Positions 2,837 through 32,046 of a DNA stretch of 64,000 bases are shown here, piece by piece (within the stretch, counting starts at the first letter, position 1; each line of letters begins with the position of its first letter). The notes beneath the pieces are model-generated. The model did no database searches. It had not been told where the DNA came from and saw only the letters and a program-made list of their open reading frames with translations. The stretch lies in NCBI GenBank assembly GCA_037143235.1, contig JBAWZC010000001.1, forward strand, positions 1,132 to 65,131, in the 5' to 3' direction. This DNA comes from Candidatus Berkelbacteria bacterium. Its GTDB lineage: Bacteria > Patescibacteriota > UBA1384 > XYA2-FULL-43-10 > 1-14-0-10-43-13. The position numbers were made by a program, and so were the translations under genes.

Positions 2837-2866
2837 TGTCATTCCGGACCACGATCCGGAATCTAT
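2837..2866. repeat. Solo palindromic element of the TGTCAT family (tgtcattccggaccacgatccggaatctat).
   Basis: TGTCAT terminus followed by an 8-bp stem (attccgga/tccggaat) and a ctat tail, as in the inverted repeats flanking the GIY-YIG genes. Confidence 0.55.
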
Positions 2867-11817: not shown

Positions 11818-13125
11818 ATGAAAAAAATTATCCGCAAACTGTTACCAAAACGACTTATACTGCTCTACCATTATTTTCTCGCACTTTTAGCCACACTGAT
11901 ATACGGCTCCCCTGCCAAAAAAATGATTATCATTGGCGTCACTGGCACCAAGGGCAAAACCACAACTTCCAACTACATCTGGTCTTGTCTCTCTGCTTGC
12001 GGCATCAAGACAGGCATCATTTCCACCGCCAACATTCGTATCGGTAACGAAGAATCGCTCAATGAATATCACATGACGATGCCAGGGCGCTTCACCATCC
12101 AAAAATTGTTAAAACAGATGGCCGATGCGGGCTGCAAGTACTGCGTCGTCGAAACCACCTCGGAAGGACTTAAACAATATCGTCACATCGGCGTTCACTA
12201 CGACATTGGTGTTTTTACCAATTTGACCCCAGAACATCTCTCGGCCCATGGTGGCTCATTTGAAAATTACAAAAATGCCAAAAGTATCATGTTCCGTGCC
12301 CTTTCCAAAAACATCAAAACAATTGACGATAAAAAAATCGAAAAAATTATTATTGCCAATGCCGATAGTGAATATGCCGACTTCTATCTTAATTTTCCTG
12401 TCGATAAAAAAATCACTTACTCCATCGATCAACCATCCGACTACAAGGCAGCGAAAATCGTCGAATCTGTTGAGGGTGTGAAATTTGAACTTGGCTCAGA
12501 AAAATACGCCAGCAAAATCACCGGCCGCTTCAATGTCTACAACATTTTGCCCGCCATCATCATCTGTAAACTTGCTGGCGGTACAAACGAAAAAATAAAG
12601 CTAGGATTAAATAGTCTCGAAGTTATTCCGGGCAGAATGGAATTTATCGACAAGGGACAAAATTTCAAAACGATGGTTGATTATGCCCACGAAAAACAAA
12701 GTATTACCAATATATTAAATACTGCCAGAAAAATTATTGCTCCGACATCAAAAGTTATTATCTTGCTCGGTGCCGAAGGTGGTGGCCGAGACAAAACTAA
12801 GCGAACTGCGATGGGCGAACTCTCCGCCAAGCTATCTGACTTTGTTGTCGTTTCCAATGTTGACCCTTACGAAGACAATCCAACCGAGATCGTCGAAGAT
12901 ATCGCCAAAGTCGCCGAAAATAATGGCAAAGAGCGTGACAAAAACTTATTCGTGATCGAAGATCGCCGCGAAGGCATCCGCAAAGCCTTCTCACTCGCCC
13001 ATCGTGACGACATCGTCCTCATCACTGGCAAAGGCGCCGAGCAATCGATCACCATCGGCGGCGTCAAATATCCGTGGGACGACCGCACTGTCGTGATTGA
13101 AGAATTGGAAAAACTAAAATTTTAG
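11818..13125 (+). CDS. Mur ligase family protein (MurE-like UDP-N-acetylmuramoyl-tripeptide synthetase) with an N-terminal TM segment
   Basis: GVTGTKGKTTT ATP-binding P-loop, TNLTPEHL motif, and a C-terminal Mur ligase domain (GGGRDKTKR...LITGKGAEQ...PWDDR). Promoter-like TTGTCA-17-TAAGAT upstream. Confidence 0.75.
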   Translation: MKKIIRKLLPKRLILLYHYFLALLATLIYGSPAKKMIIIGVTGTKGKTTTSNYIWSCLSACGIKTGIISTANIRIGNEESLNEYHMTMPGRFTIQKLLKQMADAGCKYCVVETTSEGLKQYRHIGVHYDIGVFTNLTPEHLSAHGGSFENYKNAKSIMFRALSKNIKTIDDKKIEKIIIANADSEYADFYLNFPVDKKITYSIDQPSDYKAAKIVESVEGVKFELGSEKYASKITGRFNVYNILPAIIICKLAGGTNEKIKLGLNSLEVIPGRMEFIDKGQNFKTMVDYAHEKQSITNILNTARKIIAPTSKVIILLGAEGGGRDKTKRTAMGELSAKLSDFVVVSNVDPYEDNPTEIVEDIAKVAENNGKERDKNLFVIEDRREGIRKAFSLAHRDDIVLITGKGAEQSITIGGVKYPWDDRTVVIEELEKLKF

Positions 13126-13151
13126 TTGGAAAATTAGCCCTGCCACCCGTT

Positions 13152-13530
13152 TGTCATTGCGAGCTATTGGGTTTTCCAAAGCGCGGCAATCTATCATGCT
13201 CTACCATGAAAAACTATTACACCTACATTTTATCTAACTATGATAATTCTGTTCTGTATATTGGGATTACCAATAATTTAGTTCGTAGAACACACGAGCA
13301 CAAAAACAATTTAATCGAGAGTTTTTCATCCAAATACAAAGTCCACAAATTAGTTTATTTCGAGGAAACCAATGACGCAAACTCTGCAATTTCACGAGAA
13401 AGACAATTGAAAGCTGGTAGCAGACAGAAAAAACTCGATTTAATAGCAAAAAACAATCCTGAATTTAATGATTTGTATCCAGAACTATTATAATGATAGA
13501 TTGCCGCGTCGCAGACTCCTCGCAATGACA
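13152..13530. mobile_element. Palindrome-flanked GIY-YIG cassette, divergent family member: 45-bp left IR, GIY-YIG gene, 37-bp right IR
   Basis: Left IR 13152-13196 tgtcattgcgagctattgggttttccaaagcgcggcaatctatca and right IR 13494-13530 tgatagattgccgcgtcgcagactcctcgcaatgaca. The terminal 12-14 nt are exact reverse complements (tgtcattgcgag/ctcgcaatgaca; gcggcaatctatca/tgatagattgccgc). Confidence 0.7.
13206..13493 (+). CDS. GIY-YIG nuclease family protein (small URI-domain/YhbQ-like, 95 aa)
   Basis: YTYILSNYDNSVLYIGITNNLVRRTHEHK matches the GIY...YIG motif with the conserved Arg and Glu. The ORF occupies the interval between the two IRs almost exactly; the TTG track start lies inside the left IR. 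Confidence 0.75.
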   Translation: MKNYYTYILSNYDNSVLYIGITNNLVRRTHEHKNNLIESFSSKYKVHKLVYFEETNDANSAISRERQLKAGSRQKKLDLIAKNNPEFNDLYPELL

Positions 13531-13563
13531 GACATTAGGCAGCCATTGCAACAATCCCCTGCT

Positions 13564-13688
13564 TGTCATTGCGAGCTATTGGGTTTTCCAAAGCGTGGCA
13601 ATCTATCATATCCTTTTTTTACTATTGCGGCCCAACCACGGTATCAAAGCACGATAGATTGCCGCGTCGCAGACTCCTCGCAATGACA
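13564..13688. repeat. Empty miniature copy of the same element (MITE-like): left IR and right IR separated by only 44 bp
   Basis: 13564-13608 is near-identical to the left IR at 13152 (one mismatch) and 13653-13688 is identical to the right IR at 13494. No ORF lies between them. Confidence 0.7.
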
Positions 13689-13756
13689 AATTTAGGTATT
13701 TATCAATTTTGTACTTTCTTAACACAATTAGATTAATTAAGTCAATTAGATCAATT

Positions 13757-13790
13757 CAAAAAAATCTCCCCACTGGGGAGATTTTTTCTT
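13757..13790. terminator. Bidirectional intrinsic terminator (AAAAAAATCTCCCCACTGGGGAGATTTTTTC)
   Basis: Perfect 8-bp GC-rich stem flanked by an A-run and a T-run. It terminates the 16S transcript (minus strand) about 150 nt after the rRNA 3' end, and any plus-strand read-through from the GIY-YIG cassette. Confidence 0.7.
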
Positions 13791-13937
13791 ATAGTTCTTT
13801 TGCAACTAACTAGTGATAAGTACGACCTGACCAATAATAAATTATCGATGCAGGATTTTTTTGTCTCTATGACCCAATTAGATCGGACCATAGAAATCGA
13901 CCATCTCTCAAAGCCTTATCGGCTAGAGATGCTCCTA

Positions 13938-15524
<1,587 letters not shown>

Positions 15525-21321: not shown

Positions 21322-21678
21322 TGTCATTCCCGCGCAGGCGGGAATCCACCAATAGCCACCTCCTAATTTTTATTCAAGTAAGTCTTTCCACCCAGGATTG
21401 CTTTGCTCAATCAACTTTATTTTCCAAACCCTATTCCACTTTTTAAGACGCTTTTCTCTAAGAATTGCCTCAGTCACATCAGATGTTTCTTCGAAGTAAA
21501 CAAGTTTTTTGGCTCCATATTTTTCAGAAAAACCGTTTGTAATTTTATCTTTATGCTCATTCGTTCGCTTCTCTAAATTTGATGTCACCCCCACATACAA
21601 TGTTCCATTCAAACGACTTGCCAATATGTATACAAAGTATTTTTTCATTTGTGGATTCCCGCCTGCGCGGGAATGACA
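21322..21678. mobile_element. Palindrome-flanked GIY-YIG cassette: 28-bp perfect IRs (tgtcattcccgcgcaggcgggaatccac at 21322-21349; reverse complement at 21651-21678)
   Basis: The IRs are exact reverse complements and each is itself a hairpin (ttcccgcg/cgcgggaa). The GIY-YIG ORF fills the space between them. Confidence 0.75.
21370..21648 (-). CDS. GIY-YIG nuclease family protein (92 aa)
   Basis: YFVYILASRLNGTLYVGVTSNLEKRTNEHK GIY-YIG motif; about 80% identical to the copy at 28464-28742 and about 45% to that at 13206-13493. Confidence 0.75.
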   Translation of the reverse strand: MKKYFVYILASRLNGTLYVGVTSNLEKRTNEHKDKITNGFSEKYGAKKLVYFEETSDVTEAILREKRLKKWNRVWKIKLIEQSNPGWKDLLE

Positions 21679-28339: not shown

Positions 28340-28418
28340 ATTTACCTCCATCAGTTAATTTTCATTGATGGACTATCTGCCATCACCCAATTTACTTTGT
28401 CATTCCCGCACCCTTATT

Positions 28419-28773
28419 TGTCATTCCCGCGCAGGCGGGAATCCACAAAAAGTCAACTCATAATCATTCAGTCAAATCTTTCCATCCAGGATTATTTTCT
28501 TCAATCAATCTTATTTTCCAAATTCTATTCCATTTTTTAAGACGTTTTTCTCGAAGTGATGCCTCGTGAATATCTGTCGTTTCTTCAAAATAGACAAGTT
28601 TGCTTACTCCGTATTTCTCAGAAAAACCATCAGCGATTTTATCTCGGTGTTCGGTTGTCCGTTTCTCTAAATTTGATGTTACTCCGGTATACAATGTTCC
28701 GTTGAAATGGCTCGCCAGTATGTAAACATAATATTTTTTCATTTTGTGGATTCCCGCCTGCGCGGGAATGACA
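28419..28773. mobile_element. Palindrome-flanked GIY-YIG cassette with the same 28-bp IRs as the 21322 copy (28419-28446 and 28746-28773), plus an adjacent partial IR at 28398-28413
   Basis: IRs are identical to those of the 21322-21678 element. Inserted between gap and tpiA. Confidence 0.75.
28464..28742 (-). CDS. GIY-YIG nuclease family protein (92 aa)
   Basis: YYVYILASHFNGTLYTGVTSNLEKRTTEHR; paralog of the 21370-21648 gene. Confidence 0.75.
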   Translation of the reverse strand: MKKYYVYILASHFNGTLYTGVTSNLEKRTTEHRDKIADGFSEKYGVSKLVYFEETTDIHEASLREKRLKKWNRIWKIRLIEENNPGWKDLTE

Positions 28774-29576: not shown

Positions 29577-30614
29577 TTAAACATTATTTCCCGCCTTTAT
29601 ACCATTATACATTTCTATTAGCGTTTTGGCCAAAAGATTCGGATTGTGAAACAAAGGATTTTGACGATCGACAACATCCTTACGAAATATACTGACTCCT
29701 GCAATAACTTTATCGGTTGTAGTTATATTGTTAATCTCACCCAATACTGTTTCTTTTGCACTTTTCTTCATTAACTTCGAATTGACCAAACAATGGCCGA
29801 ATAATCCTTTTTGAGAATGAGCAAAGATCTCCTCAATATGATTTTCTACCGTATAACCGGCCGTCTGAGTTCTTTCGGTCGAGCAATTTGAGATATAAAT
29901 CTTCACCGCACGACTATTGTGAACAATCGCTCGCCTGATACCAGGAATTAATAAATTTGGAATTACACTCCCATACAGACTCCCCGGCCCGATCAAGATC
30001 AAGTCAGCTGCTGCGATTGCTTTGATGACTCGAGGATTAGCTTTGACTTTTTCTTGCTGATAAAAAATCTTCTGTATCTTTTTACCAACGATCTTATCTA
30101 GGTTATCCTCGCCCTTAACCTGCTTGCCATCATCATACAAGGTGCAAAGATCAAGCTTTTCAAGTGAAGCTGGCAAAACTTCACCATGCGTCGCAAAAAG
30201 TTCACTCGTAATTTCAATGGCCTTAGCAAAAGAACCATAACGCTGAGATAGTCCCGTCAGCCAAATATTACCCAGGGTATGATTGTCTAGACCCGACCCA
30301 GCATTACGAAAACGATACTCGAGAATATCTGTCATCATCTTTTCATCTTCAGCCAGTGCAGATAAACACTTGCGAATATCTCCTGGGGGCAAGACATCGA
30401 ACTCTTTGCGCAGTTTACCAGAGGACGACCCATTGTCAGCCACCGAGACCACAGCGGTAATTTCATTCGAATACAATTTCAGCCCCTTGAGCAATGTCGA
30501 CAAACCCGTCCCTCCGCCCAGAGCAACAATACGAATAACTCCACCCGCACGATGTCGTGGATCAGTCGGCTCGTATTTGAGCGAGTTAAACCATTTTTTA
30601 AAAAATTTTTTCAT
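29577..30614 (-). CDS. YvcK/CofD-family gluconeogenesis factor-like protein (UPF0052)
   Basis: VALGGGTGLSTLLKGLK glycine-rich motif characteristic of the YvcK/CofD family; 345 aa. Confidence 0.75.
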   Translation of the reverse strand: MKKFFKKWFNSLKYEPTDPRHRAGGVIRIVALGGGTGLSTLLKGLKLYSNEITAVVSVADNGSSSGKLRKEFDVLPPGDIRKCLSALAEDEKMMTDILEYRFRNAGSGLDNHTLGNIWLTGLSQRYGSFAKAIEITSELFATHGEVLPASLEKLDLCTLYDDGKQVKGEDNLDKIVGKKIQKIFYQQEKVKANPRVIKAIAAADLILIGPGSLYGSVIPNLLIPGIRRAIVHNSRAVKIYISNCSTERTQTAGYTVENHIEEIFAHSQKGLFGHCLVNSKLMKKSAKETVLGEINNITTTDKVIAGVSIFRKDVVDRQNPLFHNPNLLAKTLIEMYNGIKAGNNV

Positions 30615-30615
30615 A

Positions 30616-32046
30616 TTAATCAAAAAGATCCTTTACCTGTTTTTTTCGATGATAGGATATAGCAAAACGATGCGCCTCATCCCTTGCTCGTATCAAGACT
30701 CTTTGCAATGTTTGGTTTGTTTTAATAAATACCGCAATTTTATCATCAGAAAATCGCAAATCATTTCTTTTTCTCTCGGCGCCCTTTGCAATTGCCACCA
30801 CGGGGATGTCTTTGCCAAGCTCCGTAAGCAATAACTTCACAATATTCAACTGCGATTGTCCCCCGTCCAAAACGATCAAATCAGGCAGTGGCCAATCATT
30901 TTTCATTCTTCGCTCAATCACATCTCTCATCCAATAAATATCACCTACTCGCTTGTCATCCCCAGATTCACTATTTTTTGTCATCCCCGATCCAGTCGGG
31001 GATCCATTAATAGCTTTCCCCACTTCACTAAAGTTACGAGGGGCAGGGTGGATTCCCGCCTCCGCGGGAATGACAGAAACGGGAAACTGTTTTCCGTTTT
31101 CTGTTTTCTGTAAACTAAACATCCGATAATCGTCCTTGCTTGCTTTTCCGTCTACAAAAACGACCATCGAACCAACGACATTTTTTCCAGATATATTCGA
31201 AATATCATAACACTCGATTCTCTTGAAGCCAGCGACTGATTGATCGACCAATTCATCCGACAAGCCCACCCCCACATCTCGAAGGTGCTGTAGCGCTCTG
31301 ATCTTGTCCCGAACCAACGCTGCCTCCTCGTATTTTGATTTGGCACTTAGTTTCGCCATCTCCTTTTCAAGGTCGGCAAAAAGCTTCTGTTTTTTGTTTT
31401 GCAAATATTTGACCAAATAGCCAATGTTCTTCTGGTAATCTTTTTCGTCAGTAAAATCGGCGCAAGGCGCACTACAAACTCGGATCTCGCCGAAGATACA
31501 TGGCCTTTTTTGCCTTTGCTGAGACGCAAACTTTGTCTTGGAACAGTCACGATATGGAAAGATCTTGCGTAGATATCTCAAAGCATTTTTCAGCAAATCG
31601 CCTGAAGGATAAGGGCCAAAATATATCGCCGATCGATCAGAAAAATCCACATTTCTCGATCGTACCAGTTCAACCATCGAGAACGATCCAGCTCGGTCAA
31701 CTTGAGATTTAGAATTTAAAATTCTACGAGTTATCTTTATCACCAAAAAGCTTTTGTCGTCCTTGGCTCTGATATTATATTTCGGCTTAATCTTGTTGAT
31801 CAGCTCTGCCTCGAGCAAAATTGCTTCAATCTCAGAATCAGTCTCAACGGTCACGACCTTGTCGGCTAGCTCCACCATCTGAATGATGCCAACCCCTCTG
31901 TCTAGTGTACTCAAAAAATATTGACGGATGCGATTGCGCAAGTTCTTTGCTTTGCCGATATACAAAATCTTCCCTTTGACATCCAGAAACTTATAGACGC
32001 CAGGAGAACTTGAGATTCCACTAAAATTTATCGAACTTTTATTCAT
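30616..32046 (-). CDS. uvrC: Excinuclease ABC subunit C (UvrC), short form ending right after RDEAHRFAISYHRKK (no C-terminal (HhH)2 domain), with an in-frame insertion of about 50 aa
   Basis: N-terminal GIY-YIG (GVYKFLD...ILYIGKAKNLRNRIRQYF), a Cys cluster, UVR domain, RNase-H-like ECYDISN...YRMF and DIYWMRDVIERR...LIVLDGGQSQL...RDEAHRFA. The TGTCAT-family hairpin plus heptamer repeats at 30943-31095 are translated in-frame (…IPAEAGIHPAPRNF…). Confidence 0.8.
   Translation of the reverse strand: MNKSSINFSGISSSPGVYKFLDVKGKILYIGKAKNLRNRIRQYFLSTLDRGVGIIQMVELADKVVTVETDSEIEAILLEAELINKIKPKYNIRAKDDKSFLVIKITRRILNSKSQVDRAGSFSMVELVRSRNVDFSDRSAIYFGPYPSGDLLKNALRYLRKIFPYRDCSKTKFASQQRQKRPCIFGEIRVCSAPCADFTDEKDYQKNIGYLVKYLQNKKQKLFADLEKEMAKLSAKSKYEEAALVRDKIRALQHLRDVGVGLSDELVDQSVAGFKRIECYDISNISGKNVVGSMVVFVDGKASKDDYRMFSLQKTENGKQFPVSVIPAEAGIHPAPRNFSEVGKAINGSPTGSGMTKNSESGDDKRVGDIYWMRDVIERRMKNDWPLPDLIVLDGGQSQLNIVKLLLTELGKDIPVVAIAKGAERKRNDLRFSDDKIAVFIKTNQTLQRVLIRARDEAHRFAISYHRKKQVKDLFD
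30943..31095. repeat. TGTCAT-family palindromic elements plus a (CTGTTTT)n heptamer repeat embedded in-frame in uvrC
   Basis: Contains cttgtcatccccagattcac, ttgtcatccccgatccagtcggggatcca (stem ccccga/tcgggg), gtggattcccgcctccgcgggaatgaca (the 28-bp IR with one substitution) and ctgttttccgttttctgttttctg. Confidence 0.65.

Follow-up and report, generated by a model that had tools for sequence, protein, structure and literature searches.

A uvrC-like gene in the 64,000-nt stretch of Candidatus Berkelbacteria DNA analyzed here (the window) contains hairpin-forming repeats within its coding sequence, raising the questions of where this DNA came from and whether the gene can still encode a working repair enzyme. 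The gene (30616-32046, minus strand), whose stop is overlapped by a neighboring cofD-like gene (29577-30623), is an intact open reading frame of 476 aa. Of the domains taken to define UvrC, its product has the GIY-YIG, UVR and RNase H-like endonuclease domains, each of them matched in Pfam (with the UvrC_RNaseH match falling in two separate stretches), and lacks (HhH)2. Its score against the NCBIfam model TIGR00194 (286.4 bits) is narrowly above the equivalog cutoff of 285.45. Residues D281, D394 and H459, which we take to be the catalytic DDH triad, are invariant across the orthologue alignment, as are several residues of the GIY-YIG domain.

The initial annotation of this locus had drawn attention to the missing C-terminal (HhH)2 domain, and the protein does end 7 residues past ...ISYHRKK with no HhH domain. 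However, the HhH Pfam family was found in none of the 120 closest homologues listed (397-510 aa), whose consensus stops at the same point; the short form is common to all 120 and nothing peculiar to the window gene. The closest listed orthologue, at only ~52% identity, is too distant for the insertion to be dated. A scan of genome contigs based on the UvrC alignment did not bring up closer relatives: its back-translated patterns were too general, and all the UvrCs that it retrieved were remote (26-39% identity).

A probable extra loop in the RNase H-like domain

The extra coding segment occupies positions 30943-31104 (minus strand; UvrC residues 315-368, TENGKQFPVSVIPAEAGIHPAPRNFSEVGKAINGSPTGSGMTKNSESGDDKRVG) and exceeds insert-free orthologues by ~150 nt. 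In alignments to known structures, query residues 314 and 369 pair with residues 54 and 60 of 3c65 and with residues 57 and 62 of 2nrr, giving a canonical linker of ~5 residues versus 54 in the window UvrC, close to the ~6 and ~56 initially annotated; the same region comprises 40-41 residues in insert-free CPR orthologues versus 90 here. The AlphaFold2 model is of low confidence (pLDDT < 50) at residues 319-323 and 329-366, with flanks at 94-96, and it places the insert between a strand (308-312) and a helix (364-382) of the RNase H-like domain. If translated, the insert (which encodes the peptides QFPVSVIPAEAGIHPAPR, NFSEVGK and AINGSPTGSGMTK) is thus most likely a disordered surface loop of ~50 residues, and its consequence for UvrC is probably small, as such a loop would lie away from the conserved residues. 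From the open frame and the retained residues we infer both that the insert is translated and that UvrC remains active.

The reading frame is kept throughout, and the stop codon or frameshift that would have marked a pseudogene was looked for and not found. We do not regard this openness as proof of selection: the element lacks stop codons in three of its six frames, so that about one in six random insertions would be both open and in phase. Matches to Rfam, introns included, were at chance level across the insert region.

A hairpin pair of the Ssn/SRM family

The core of the insert consists of two full hairpin units, each with TGTCAT before its 8-bp stem (ATTCCCGC/GCGGGAAT in hairpin A, ATCCCCGA/TCGGGGAT in hairpin B). 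Hairpin A (31048-31075, minus strand; coding strand TGTCATTCCCGCGGAGGCGGGAATCCAC, translated VIPAEAGIH) is the sole exact match to GTGGATTCCCGCCTCCGCGGGAATGACA in the window, and its family numbers five matches there, one exact and four with a single mismatch, versus none in 100 shuffles. Hairpin B (30979-31007, plus strand; TGTCATCCCCGATCCAGTCGGGGATCCAT, translated GSPTGSGMT on the coding strand) lies across a 40-nt spacer (31008-31047), and its stem differs from that of hairpin A by two compensated pairs. In addition to the two units recognized initially, a half-unit, TGTCATCCCCA, followed by a T-rich spacer (30954-30978, plus strand), lies directly outside hairpin B. The heptamer repeats reported alongside them are present as a tandem array of period 7 and 3.6 copies, but this array (31087-31111) runs past position 31095, where the insertion had been said to end. 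It is overlapped by a third hairpin (31073-31111; ACAGAAACGGGAAA / TTTCCGTTTTCTGT), which is found nowhere else in the window and accounts for the rest of the added codons, QKTENGKQFPVS. Folded as single-stranded DNA, the insert forms three hairpins (z = -4.5). A terminator-like hairpin at 31076-31100 was discounted: it lies on the antisense strand, and the number of such sites is within chance.

The other four members of the hairpin A family flank two genes for 92-aa GIY-YIG proteins, located 2.2 and 9.3 kb from the uvrC element. The first of these ssnA elements (21322-21678, minus strand) consists of an SRM (21322-21349), the gene (21370-21648) and a second SRM (21651-21678); the other (28398-28773, minus strand) consists of a half-site (28398), an SRM (28419-28446), the gene (28464-28742) and a closing SRM (28746-28773). 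These SRMs form inverted pairs (21322/21651 and 28419/28746), each differing from GTGGATTCCCGCCTCCGCGGGAATGACA at one position. That the repeat inside uvrC is the one flanking GIY-YIG genes, with one substitution, is therefore correct for hairpin A (27/28 identical), whereas hairpin B is of a different type from that next to the local ssnA genes. A solitary SRM variant, TGTCATTCCGGACCACGATCCGGAATCTAT, is intergenic (2837-2866, plus strand).

Judged by sequence, the window repeat family is the already described NTS/SRM family of the Ssn ssDNA nucleases, a system first described in 2025 by Chenal et al. in Nat Commun (PMC11893778). All four ssnA-flanking copies fit the published SRM search motif, HGTCWYN(0-2)YYVSBRHN(0-5)WNVSBRGN(0-2)RNCYNB (shuffles yielded a mean of 0.16 matches), and are identical to the Neisseria NTS consensus at 26 of 28 positions, the window copy TGTCATTCCCGCGCAGGCGGGAATCCAC corresponding to CGTCATTCCCGCGMAVGCGGGAATCYRG. 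Hairpin A, nearly identical as it is to these four copies, is missed by the strict pattern owing to a single substitution in its loop. With an NTS-flanked SsnA-type protein of N. gonorrhoeae (94 aa), used in place of N. meningitidis SsnA, the window proteins share 54% identity (E 6e-34); homology to SsnA was defined in the Ssn study by E < 1e-10 (PMC11893778), and assignment to cd10448 (GIY-YIG_unchar_3) in CDD is a further mark of the family. Searches with the 92-aa proteins matched only PF01541 in Pfam, no specific model in NCBIfam and no sequence relative in the PDB. Features by which an Ssn system is recognized are present in the window: an oriented, non-palindromic GTCAT flank on a hairpin core, and a GIY-YIG gene with a repeat on both sides.

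The two systems thus share a single-domain GIY-YIG protein of 92-94 aa and the repeat-gene-repeat arrangement, but they differ in host, in orientation and in the placement of the repeats. The host here belongs to the CPR (Berkelbacteria), a group unmentioned in PMC11893778; in the window, ssnA has the TGTCAT heads facing outward from it, whereas at the one N. gonorrhoeae locus inspected they face the gene; and NTS are rarely intragenic (2% in N. meningitidis; PMC11893778), whereas the window has a gene-less hairpin pair in-frame in a core gene. Repeat-encoded peptides such as IPAKAGIQ found no mention in a literature search. The characterized nucleases bind the hairpin in ssDNA and cut just upstream, leaving dsDNA and RNA uncut (PMC11893778). 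Chenal et al. noted that the repeat-gene-repeat arrangement resembles an insertion sequence, but had no evidence that it moves, and proposed that NTS limit recombination of incoming DNA in Neisseria (PMC11893778).

As a whole, the two-hairpin unit has inverted TGTCAT heads facing outward, ~122 nt from head to head, with inverted arms that are 87% complementary over 15 nt. The arrangement of a half-site followed by a full hairpin recurs in the ssnA element at 28398-28446, and the ends of the uvrC element align with those of that gene-carrying element: on the left the half-site and hairpin, and on the right 32 nt that include GAAA. In being a short, non-coding unit whose inverted ends are related to a gene-carrying element, the unit resembles a MITE, and MITEs that have inserted in-frame are on record from several bacteria (PMC5896051). 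The pairing of hairpin-forming repeats with a dedicated nuclease gene is reminiscent of REP/BIME-RAYT systems, a parallel that Chenal et al. draw themselves (PMC11893778). In contrast to these systems, however, the partner enzyme here is not a DDE or HUH transposase but belongs to the GIY-YIG nucleases and is not known to carry out strand transfer; moreover, the target-site duplication expected of a MITE is absent at the uvrC element. The unit occurs once in the 64-kb window; in the related genome L003, that genome's own uvrC element has a second copy, which is intergenic.

Repeated insertion in UvrC and in other genes

At least 8 extra residues occur at the same site in 34 of the 120 listed CPR orthologues, and the insert-bearing orthologues are scattered across the tree. 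Most listed orthologues have no insert; the loop is recurrently struck in related genomes, and insertion is not restricted to this lineage. Long linkers in other UvrCs, named beforehand as grounds for doubting an insertion, therefore do exist, but those inspected as DNA are not repeat-free: GTCAT...ATGAC bounds all eight of them. Among these eight, three different frames are read and no fewer than three types of hairpin occur, with stems that vary between genomes through compensated changes. Each of two inserts followed further matches hairpin repeats elsewhere in its own genome. Inserts among the orthologues range from 3 to 51 residues, with no conserved peptide among them, and repeat-derived inserts are also present in a second UvrC loop, near residue 108, in many related CPR orthologues. 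One pair of orthologues (P0005 and P0009) is 91% identical apart from a clean 102-nt presence/absence of an SRM pair. Neither the window element nor a comparison of an empty with a filled site (L089/L090) showed a target-site duplication. A search of 8 elements for a duplication or a common target motif found nothing more than a T-rich stretch preceding TGTCAT in the copies from the window.

Hairpins of type B are widespread in metagenomes, where 31 of 84 copies fall within ORFs that are 150 aa or longer; nine of ten such ORFs tested belong to real Pfam families, and genes with internal copies of the hairpin include MurT, LeuRS, TsaD, PGI and others. Metagenome contigs also hold at least 29 heterotypic hairpin pairs. 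The initial annotation had seen meaning in a GIY-YIG-associated repeat residing in an enzyme with a GIY-YIG domain of its own, but the same hairpins in unrelated genes lend this special link no support, and we reject it; the tie is probably a coincidence.

Small palindromic repeats situated in-frame in conserved genes, and also between genes, are what Ogata and colleagues reportedly described in 2000 as the RPEs of Rickettsia, which are said to be translated as extra segments and tolerated on the protein surface. The window uvrC is alike in that a palindromic repeat lies in-frame in a conserved gene without disrupting it. RPE families are presumably among the NCBIfam domain models, none of which matches the insert peptide at E <= 1, such that the element is RPE-like in its way of working and not by sequence; it is in the former sense that the parallel to Rickettsia, drawn at the outset, is apt. 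The window case further differs in belonging to another phylum and in having a partner nuclease gene within the window. By analogy, it is a Rickettsia-RPE-like case that arises from a known repeat family, and Rickettsia itself is among the SRM-rich genera (PMC11893778).

Origin and persistence of the insert

Very probably, then, the uvrC insert is an in-frame element of the SRM family that is tolerated and translated as a loop in an enzyme that still works. The extra 150 nt would consist of a non-autonomous two-hairpin SRM/NTS element together with the adjoining 7-nt tandem repeat; the element would have entered a strand-helix loop of the RNase H-like domain with the frame kept and no stop introduced, and would give the protein ~50 additional residues in the form of a disordered loop on its surface, with UvrC function preserved. 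Its persistence may have two components: SRM elements would multiply in these genomes, and both UvrC loops (the insert site and that near residue ~108) would be permissive, allowing frame-restoring insertions to escape purging. Ssn may be what moves or maintains the element, but a mechanism of transposition is missing from this account, since there is no target-site duplication or motif and since Ssn nicking has been demonstrated for ssDNA on one hairpin side only (PMC11893778).

The conservation of the hairpins themselves could suggest instead that selection acts on the DNA, the uvrC copy being a domesticated cis-site for ssDNA nicking by Ssn that, for example, limits recombination of incoming DNA at uvrC. 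The elements of L003 and L085 share 88% of their nucleotides, with the hairpins matching at 36/37 and 29/30 positions (counted on the alignment) and the 8-nt spacer diverged, while third codon positions over the whole gene are 46% identical. Likewise, the four ssnA-flanking SRMs in the window are 100% identical, versus 76.7% for their two genes, and compensated stem changes between genomes point the same way. Yet recent or repeated insertion, or gene conversion among copies, predicts equal conservation, and a domesticated site fits poorly with inserts that are patchy (to the point of absence from a 91%-identical orthologue), with a site occupied by differing element types, and with the occurrence of the same hairpins between genes as well as inside many unrelated ones. 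We consider selection on the DNA unlikely.

Selection on the peptide is less probable still. None of the 120 listed homologues has (HhH)2, and many have extra residues in the RNase H-like loop, as would fit an insert co-opted as a functional segment, such as an interaction loop replacing the missing domain; but a co-opted segment would hardly lack a conserved peptide, occur in three frames, vary from 3 to 51 residues, be absent from most orthologues and be predicted as disordered. Similarly improbable is that the gene is a pseudogene or a repeat-induced assembly chimera, or that the insert is removed by splicing, as an intein or by ribosomal bypass. Repeats can mislead assemblers, and the equivalog cutoff for UvrC is barely passed, but the 476-aa frame is open and retains the presumed catalytic residues, and seven independent assemblies, made from different samples, have inserts with the same bounds at this position. 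No Rfam family, introns included, matches the region; 50 residues without intein motifs are too short for an intein; and there is no stop or frameshift that would call for bypass.

Beyond the tolerated in-frame insertion at this locus, we entertain a broader possibility only tentatively: that SRM pairs in CPR bacteria are active mobile units, moved or maintained by Ssn, that routinely settle in-frame in permissive loops of essential proteins (two sites in UvrC, as well as MurT, LeuRS, TsaD, PGI and others). The RPE phenomenon might then be general and linked to Ssn across phyla, with the hairpins held constant at the nucleotide level and the protein accommodating them. The uvrC locus and its relatives provide comparative material on Ssn/SRM mobility that makes the idea of movement testable: gene-less hairpin pairs with ends like those of ssnA elements, two orthologues of 91% identity of which one has the site empty and the other filled, two UvrC loops that are occupied repeatedly, and in-frame copies in several housekeeping genes. 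Both the repeat family and the kind of event were known already; what is new is the CPR context, the recurrence at the same UvrC loop, the presence/absence pair and the copies in housekeeping genes. Cumulatively, these observations suggest that repeat-derived peptide insertions contribute to variation in protein length in the CPR.

Structure of the uvrC insert and identity of its repeats

The uvrC open reading frame (30616-32046, minus strand) encodes 476 residues without interruption, so the extra DNA is indeed kept in frame, and its stop overlaps the start of a downstream cofD-like gene by 8 nt (30616-30623). The protein scores 286.4 bits against the UvrC equivalog TIGR00194 of NCBIfam (cutoff 285.45), and a Candidatus Berkelbacteria MAG has a recorded protein identical to it. 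Pfam places a GIY-YIG domain at residues 15-91 and a UVR motif at 224-254, and splits the match to the UvrC RNase H-like endonuclease domain in two, the better stretch being residues 367-463 (profile positions 54-159). With two solved UvrC C-terminal halves as reference, query residues 314 and 369 align with residues 54 and 60 of 3c65 and with 57 and 62 of 2nrr; about 5 canonical residues therefore correspond to 54 in the window protein (residues 315-368; nt 30943-31104, minus strand), in line with the roughly 50 extra residues described in the initial annotation.

Folded as single-stranded DNA, this segment forms three hairpins (-32.1 kcal/mol, z = -4.5). Hairpin A (31048-31075) is the 28-mer GTGGATTCCCGCCTCCGCGGGAATGACA. 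Four copies of it, changed at one loop position, stand in inverted orientation on either side of two 92-aa GIY-YIG genes (21322-21349 and 21651-21678; 28419-28446 and 28746-28773), matching the single substitution reported earlier; the 28-mer family has 5 matches in the window and 0 in 100 shuffles. Facing it is hairpin B (30979-31007), TGTCATCCCCGATCCAGTCGGGGATCCAT, whose stem (ATCCCCGA/TCGGGGAT) departs from that of hairpin A (ATTCCCGC/GCGGGAAT) at 2 positions, both compensated. The third hairpin (31073-31104) is unique in the window and overlaps a 7-nt tandem repeat of 3.6 copies (31087-31111), the heptamers already noticed.

Chenal et al. 2025 (PMC11893778) give CGTCATTCCCGCGMAVGCGGGAATCYRG as the NTS repeat of Neisseria and use a degenerate pattern to define the broader class of Ssn-related motifs (SRM). 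Both flank genes of single-domain GIY-YIG proteins of ~94 aa (SsnA, CDD cd10448), which bind the hairpin in single-stranded DNA and cut just upstream of it, leaving dsDNA, RNA and the opposite strand alone (PMC11893778). The window copy TGTCATTCCCGCGCAGGCGGGAATCCAC, read by eye, agrees with the Neisseria consensus at 26 of 28 positions. Matches to the published SRM pattern in the window are exactly the four copies flanking the GIY-YIG genes (shuffle mean 0.16), the uvrC copy being missed solely through its loop substitution. A tblastn search of PLSDB with the window GIY-YIG protein returned one homologue in each of two N. gonorrhoeae chromosomes: a 94-aa ORF with NTS copies on its flanks and 54% identity to the window protein (E 6e-34). 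Both records (NZ_CP119140.1 and NZ_CP119142.1; 2.17 Mb) contain the ssnA locus and are chromosome-sized yet labelled plasmids. We therefore class the window GIY-YIG genes as ssnA-type and their repeats as SRM.

The two window ssnA paralogues (21322-21678 and 28419-28773) share 76.7% nucleotide and 79% protein identity, and their four 28-nt SRMs are 100% identical. Whereas the oriented TGTCAT ends, or heads, point inward at the gonococcal locus (L211 250-780), they point outward from ssnA in the window (28419-28773), so that Ssn cuts would fall outside the repeat pair here and inside it in the gonococcus. The uvrC element resembles the second of these gene-bearing elements at both ends: on the left, a half-unit TGTCATCCCCA at 30954, followed by a T-run, lies outside hairpin B, and this layout of half-site then full hairpin aligns with the left end of that ssnA element (28398-28446); on the right, it matches the same element over 32 nt, including 4 bases past the head. 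Elsewhere in the window, a solitary intergenic SRM variant (2837-2866) has another stem, ATTCCGGA/TCCGGAAT, and no GIY-YIG gene nearby.

Inserts in orthologous UvrC proteins

The best 120 homologues of the window UvrC are all 397-510 aa long, and their lengths vary chiefly at two sites: near query residue 316, the insert site, 34 have at least 8 extra residues, as do 62 near query residue 108. The latter hot spot (window 31678-31728, residues ~107-123) lies between the GIY-YIG and middle domains; the window protein has ~12 extra residues there, RRILNSKSQVDRAGSFS. Among the loci looked at (L002-L004, L085, L086), the L004 insert at this spot is bounded by TGTCAT...ATGACA, and others are AT-rich 'ISNSKF/KSQIQN' repeats; in L004, from a related genome, uvrC is closely followed by genes for a bAvd-like protein and a reverse transcriptase, which together resemble a DGR pair (12705-14198). 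None of the 120 has an HhH Pfam domain, and their consensus stops where the window UvrC does: the (HhH)2 domain is absent, as initially observed, but its absence is common to all of these homologues rather than special to this gene.

DNA was obtained for ten orthologues. In most of these loci a class II aminoacyl-tRNA synthetase gene lies upstream, and the downstream neighbours (cofD, triose-phosphate isomerase and GAPDH genes) are largely shared, so the loci are orthologous; the order uvrC-cofD-tpiA-gap is kept in most. All eight inserts at the residue-316 site, the window's included, open with (T)GTCAT and close with ATGAC(A/G), and the linker is short in the two genes that lack an insert. 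Because the heads are read in three frames (V-I; C-H or S-H; L-S-F) and the hairpin types vary between orthologues (ATTCCCGC, ATTCCAGC, ATCTCGAG, ATTCTGAAC), the inserts are not one conserved ancestral peptide. Insert-bearing and insert-free relatives are interleaved in a neighbour-joining tree. The insertion, expected to be lineage-specific, is not unique to this lineage: inserts at the site are patchy across the orthologues, and the eight seen as DNA are all bounded by repeat heads. Two orthologous proteins (P0005 and P0009) differ by a clean gap of 34 residues and share 91% identity elsewhere; in DNA (L089, empty; L090 6480-6680, filled) the gap is 102 nt and holds an SRM pair. No target-site duplication was found at this empty-versus-filled site; in the filled allele, a short direct repeat (AGGATCTTC..GAG) occurs on the left flank and again immediately inward of the right head.

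Hairpin repeats in other genes

Hairpin B, sought in metagenome contigs as the exact pattern GTCATCCCCGA-N5-TCGGGGATCC, was matched in at least 120 stretches. Among the matches listed (84 copies in 80 loci), 29 copies are paired, within 160 nt, with an inverted hairpin of the ATTCCCGC type, the heterotypic combination also seen in uvrC; 31 are embedded well within ORFs of 150 aa or more, and only 1 adjoins an ssnA-like ORF. Nine of ten ORFs checked belong to genuine families: MurT twice, 2-oxoacid dehydrogenase E2 (L107), LeuRS (L118), TsaD (L128), PGI (L131), a cytidylyltransferase-like/DUF359 protein, a GT1 glycosyltransferase and a LamG protein. Both orientations are found in coding sequence. 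In-frame residence is thus a general habit of the repeat family in these communities. The MurT hairpins occupy one position, after ...NADDPQIA.LG, in unrelated contigs (L102 3634-4650, L105 412-1779), another recurrently occupied loop. The ORF at L165 411-1373, presumably a GalT-type enzyme (by eye; Pfam gave nothing at E <= 1e-5), contains the two peptides of the window insert, GSPTGSGMT and VIPAEAGIQ, its hairpins being head-to-head, not heads-outward. Nothing favours a special tie of the repeat to UvrC or its own GIY-YIG domain, as the repeats sit in unrelated genes.

Origin and tolerance of the insert

The uvrC insert is most likely an SRM pair without a gene that entered a permissive UvrC loop, or was inherited there, and is read through. 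With heads outward, Ssn would cut just outside the pair, once per strand, in a transposon-like manner; we know of no joining activity for Ssn, and neither target duplication nor target motif was found at the SRM elements examined. An artefact or pseudogene is very unlikely: across 43 orthologues D281, D394 and H459, which we take from a T. maritima structure to be the DDH catalytic residues of the RNase H-like domain, are invariant, as are Y18, Y29, R39, E74 and N91 of the GIY-YIG domain. We infer that the insert is translated and UvrC active. An AlphaFold2 model built on the same alignment (mean pLDDT 79) gives 94-96 for the insert flanks and below 50 for residues 319-323 and 329-366, between strand 308-312 and helix 364-382; as modelled, the insert looks like a disordered surface loop, the structural outcome that the initial annotation had raised.

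Exaptation of the insert as a protein loop is likewise very unlikely. The element is stop-free in three of six frames, so phase-restoring insertion is not rare: roughly one in six would stay open and in phase, and we rejected the open frame as proof of selection. A further, less likely reading is that the hairpins are domesticated as DNA. The uvrC element shared by L003 and L085 retains 88% nucleotide identity, whereas third codon positions across the gene retain only 46%; its hairpins are identical at 36 of 37 and 29 of 30 positions (hand count on the alignment), the spacer has diverged, and a second copy of the L003 pair is intergenic in that locus. This element and the identical window SRMs indicate that hairpins vary far less than the coding DNA around them; any of three processes could account for this, namely recent spread, gene conversion and selection as Ssn sites.

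In-frame palindromic elements are already known from Rickettsia (RPEs), and the parallel drawn with them is apt: the uvrC insert is akin to RPEs and to MITEs, several families of which insert in frame (PMC5896051). The SRM/Ssn pairing of repeat and nuclease is likewise already described; the Ssn paper calls NTS rarely intragenic and makes no mention of CPR bacteria, RPEs or coding insertions (PMC11893778), and a literature search found no paper with the peptides that these repeats typically encode. What the window case adds, of moderate value, is the recurrent hot spots and the pair of empty and filled sites.
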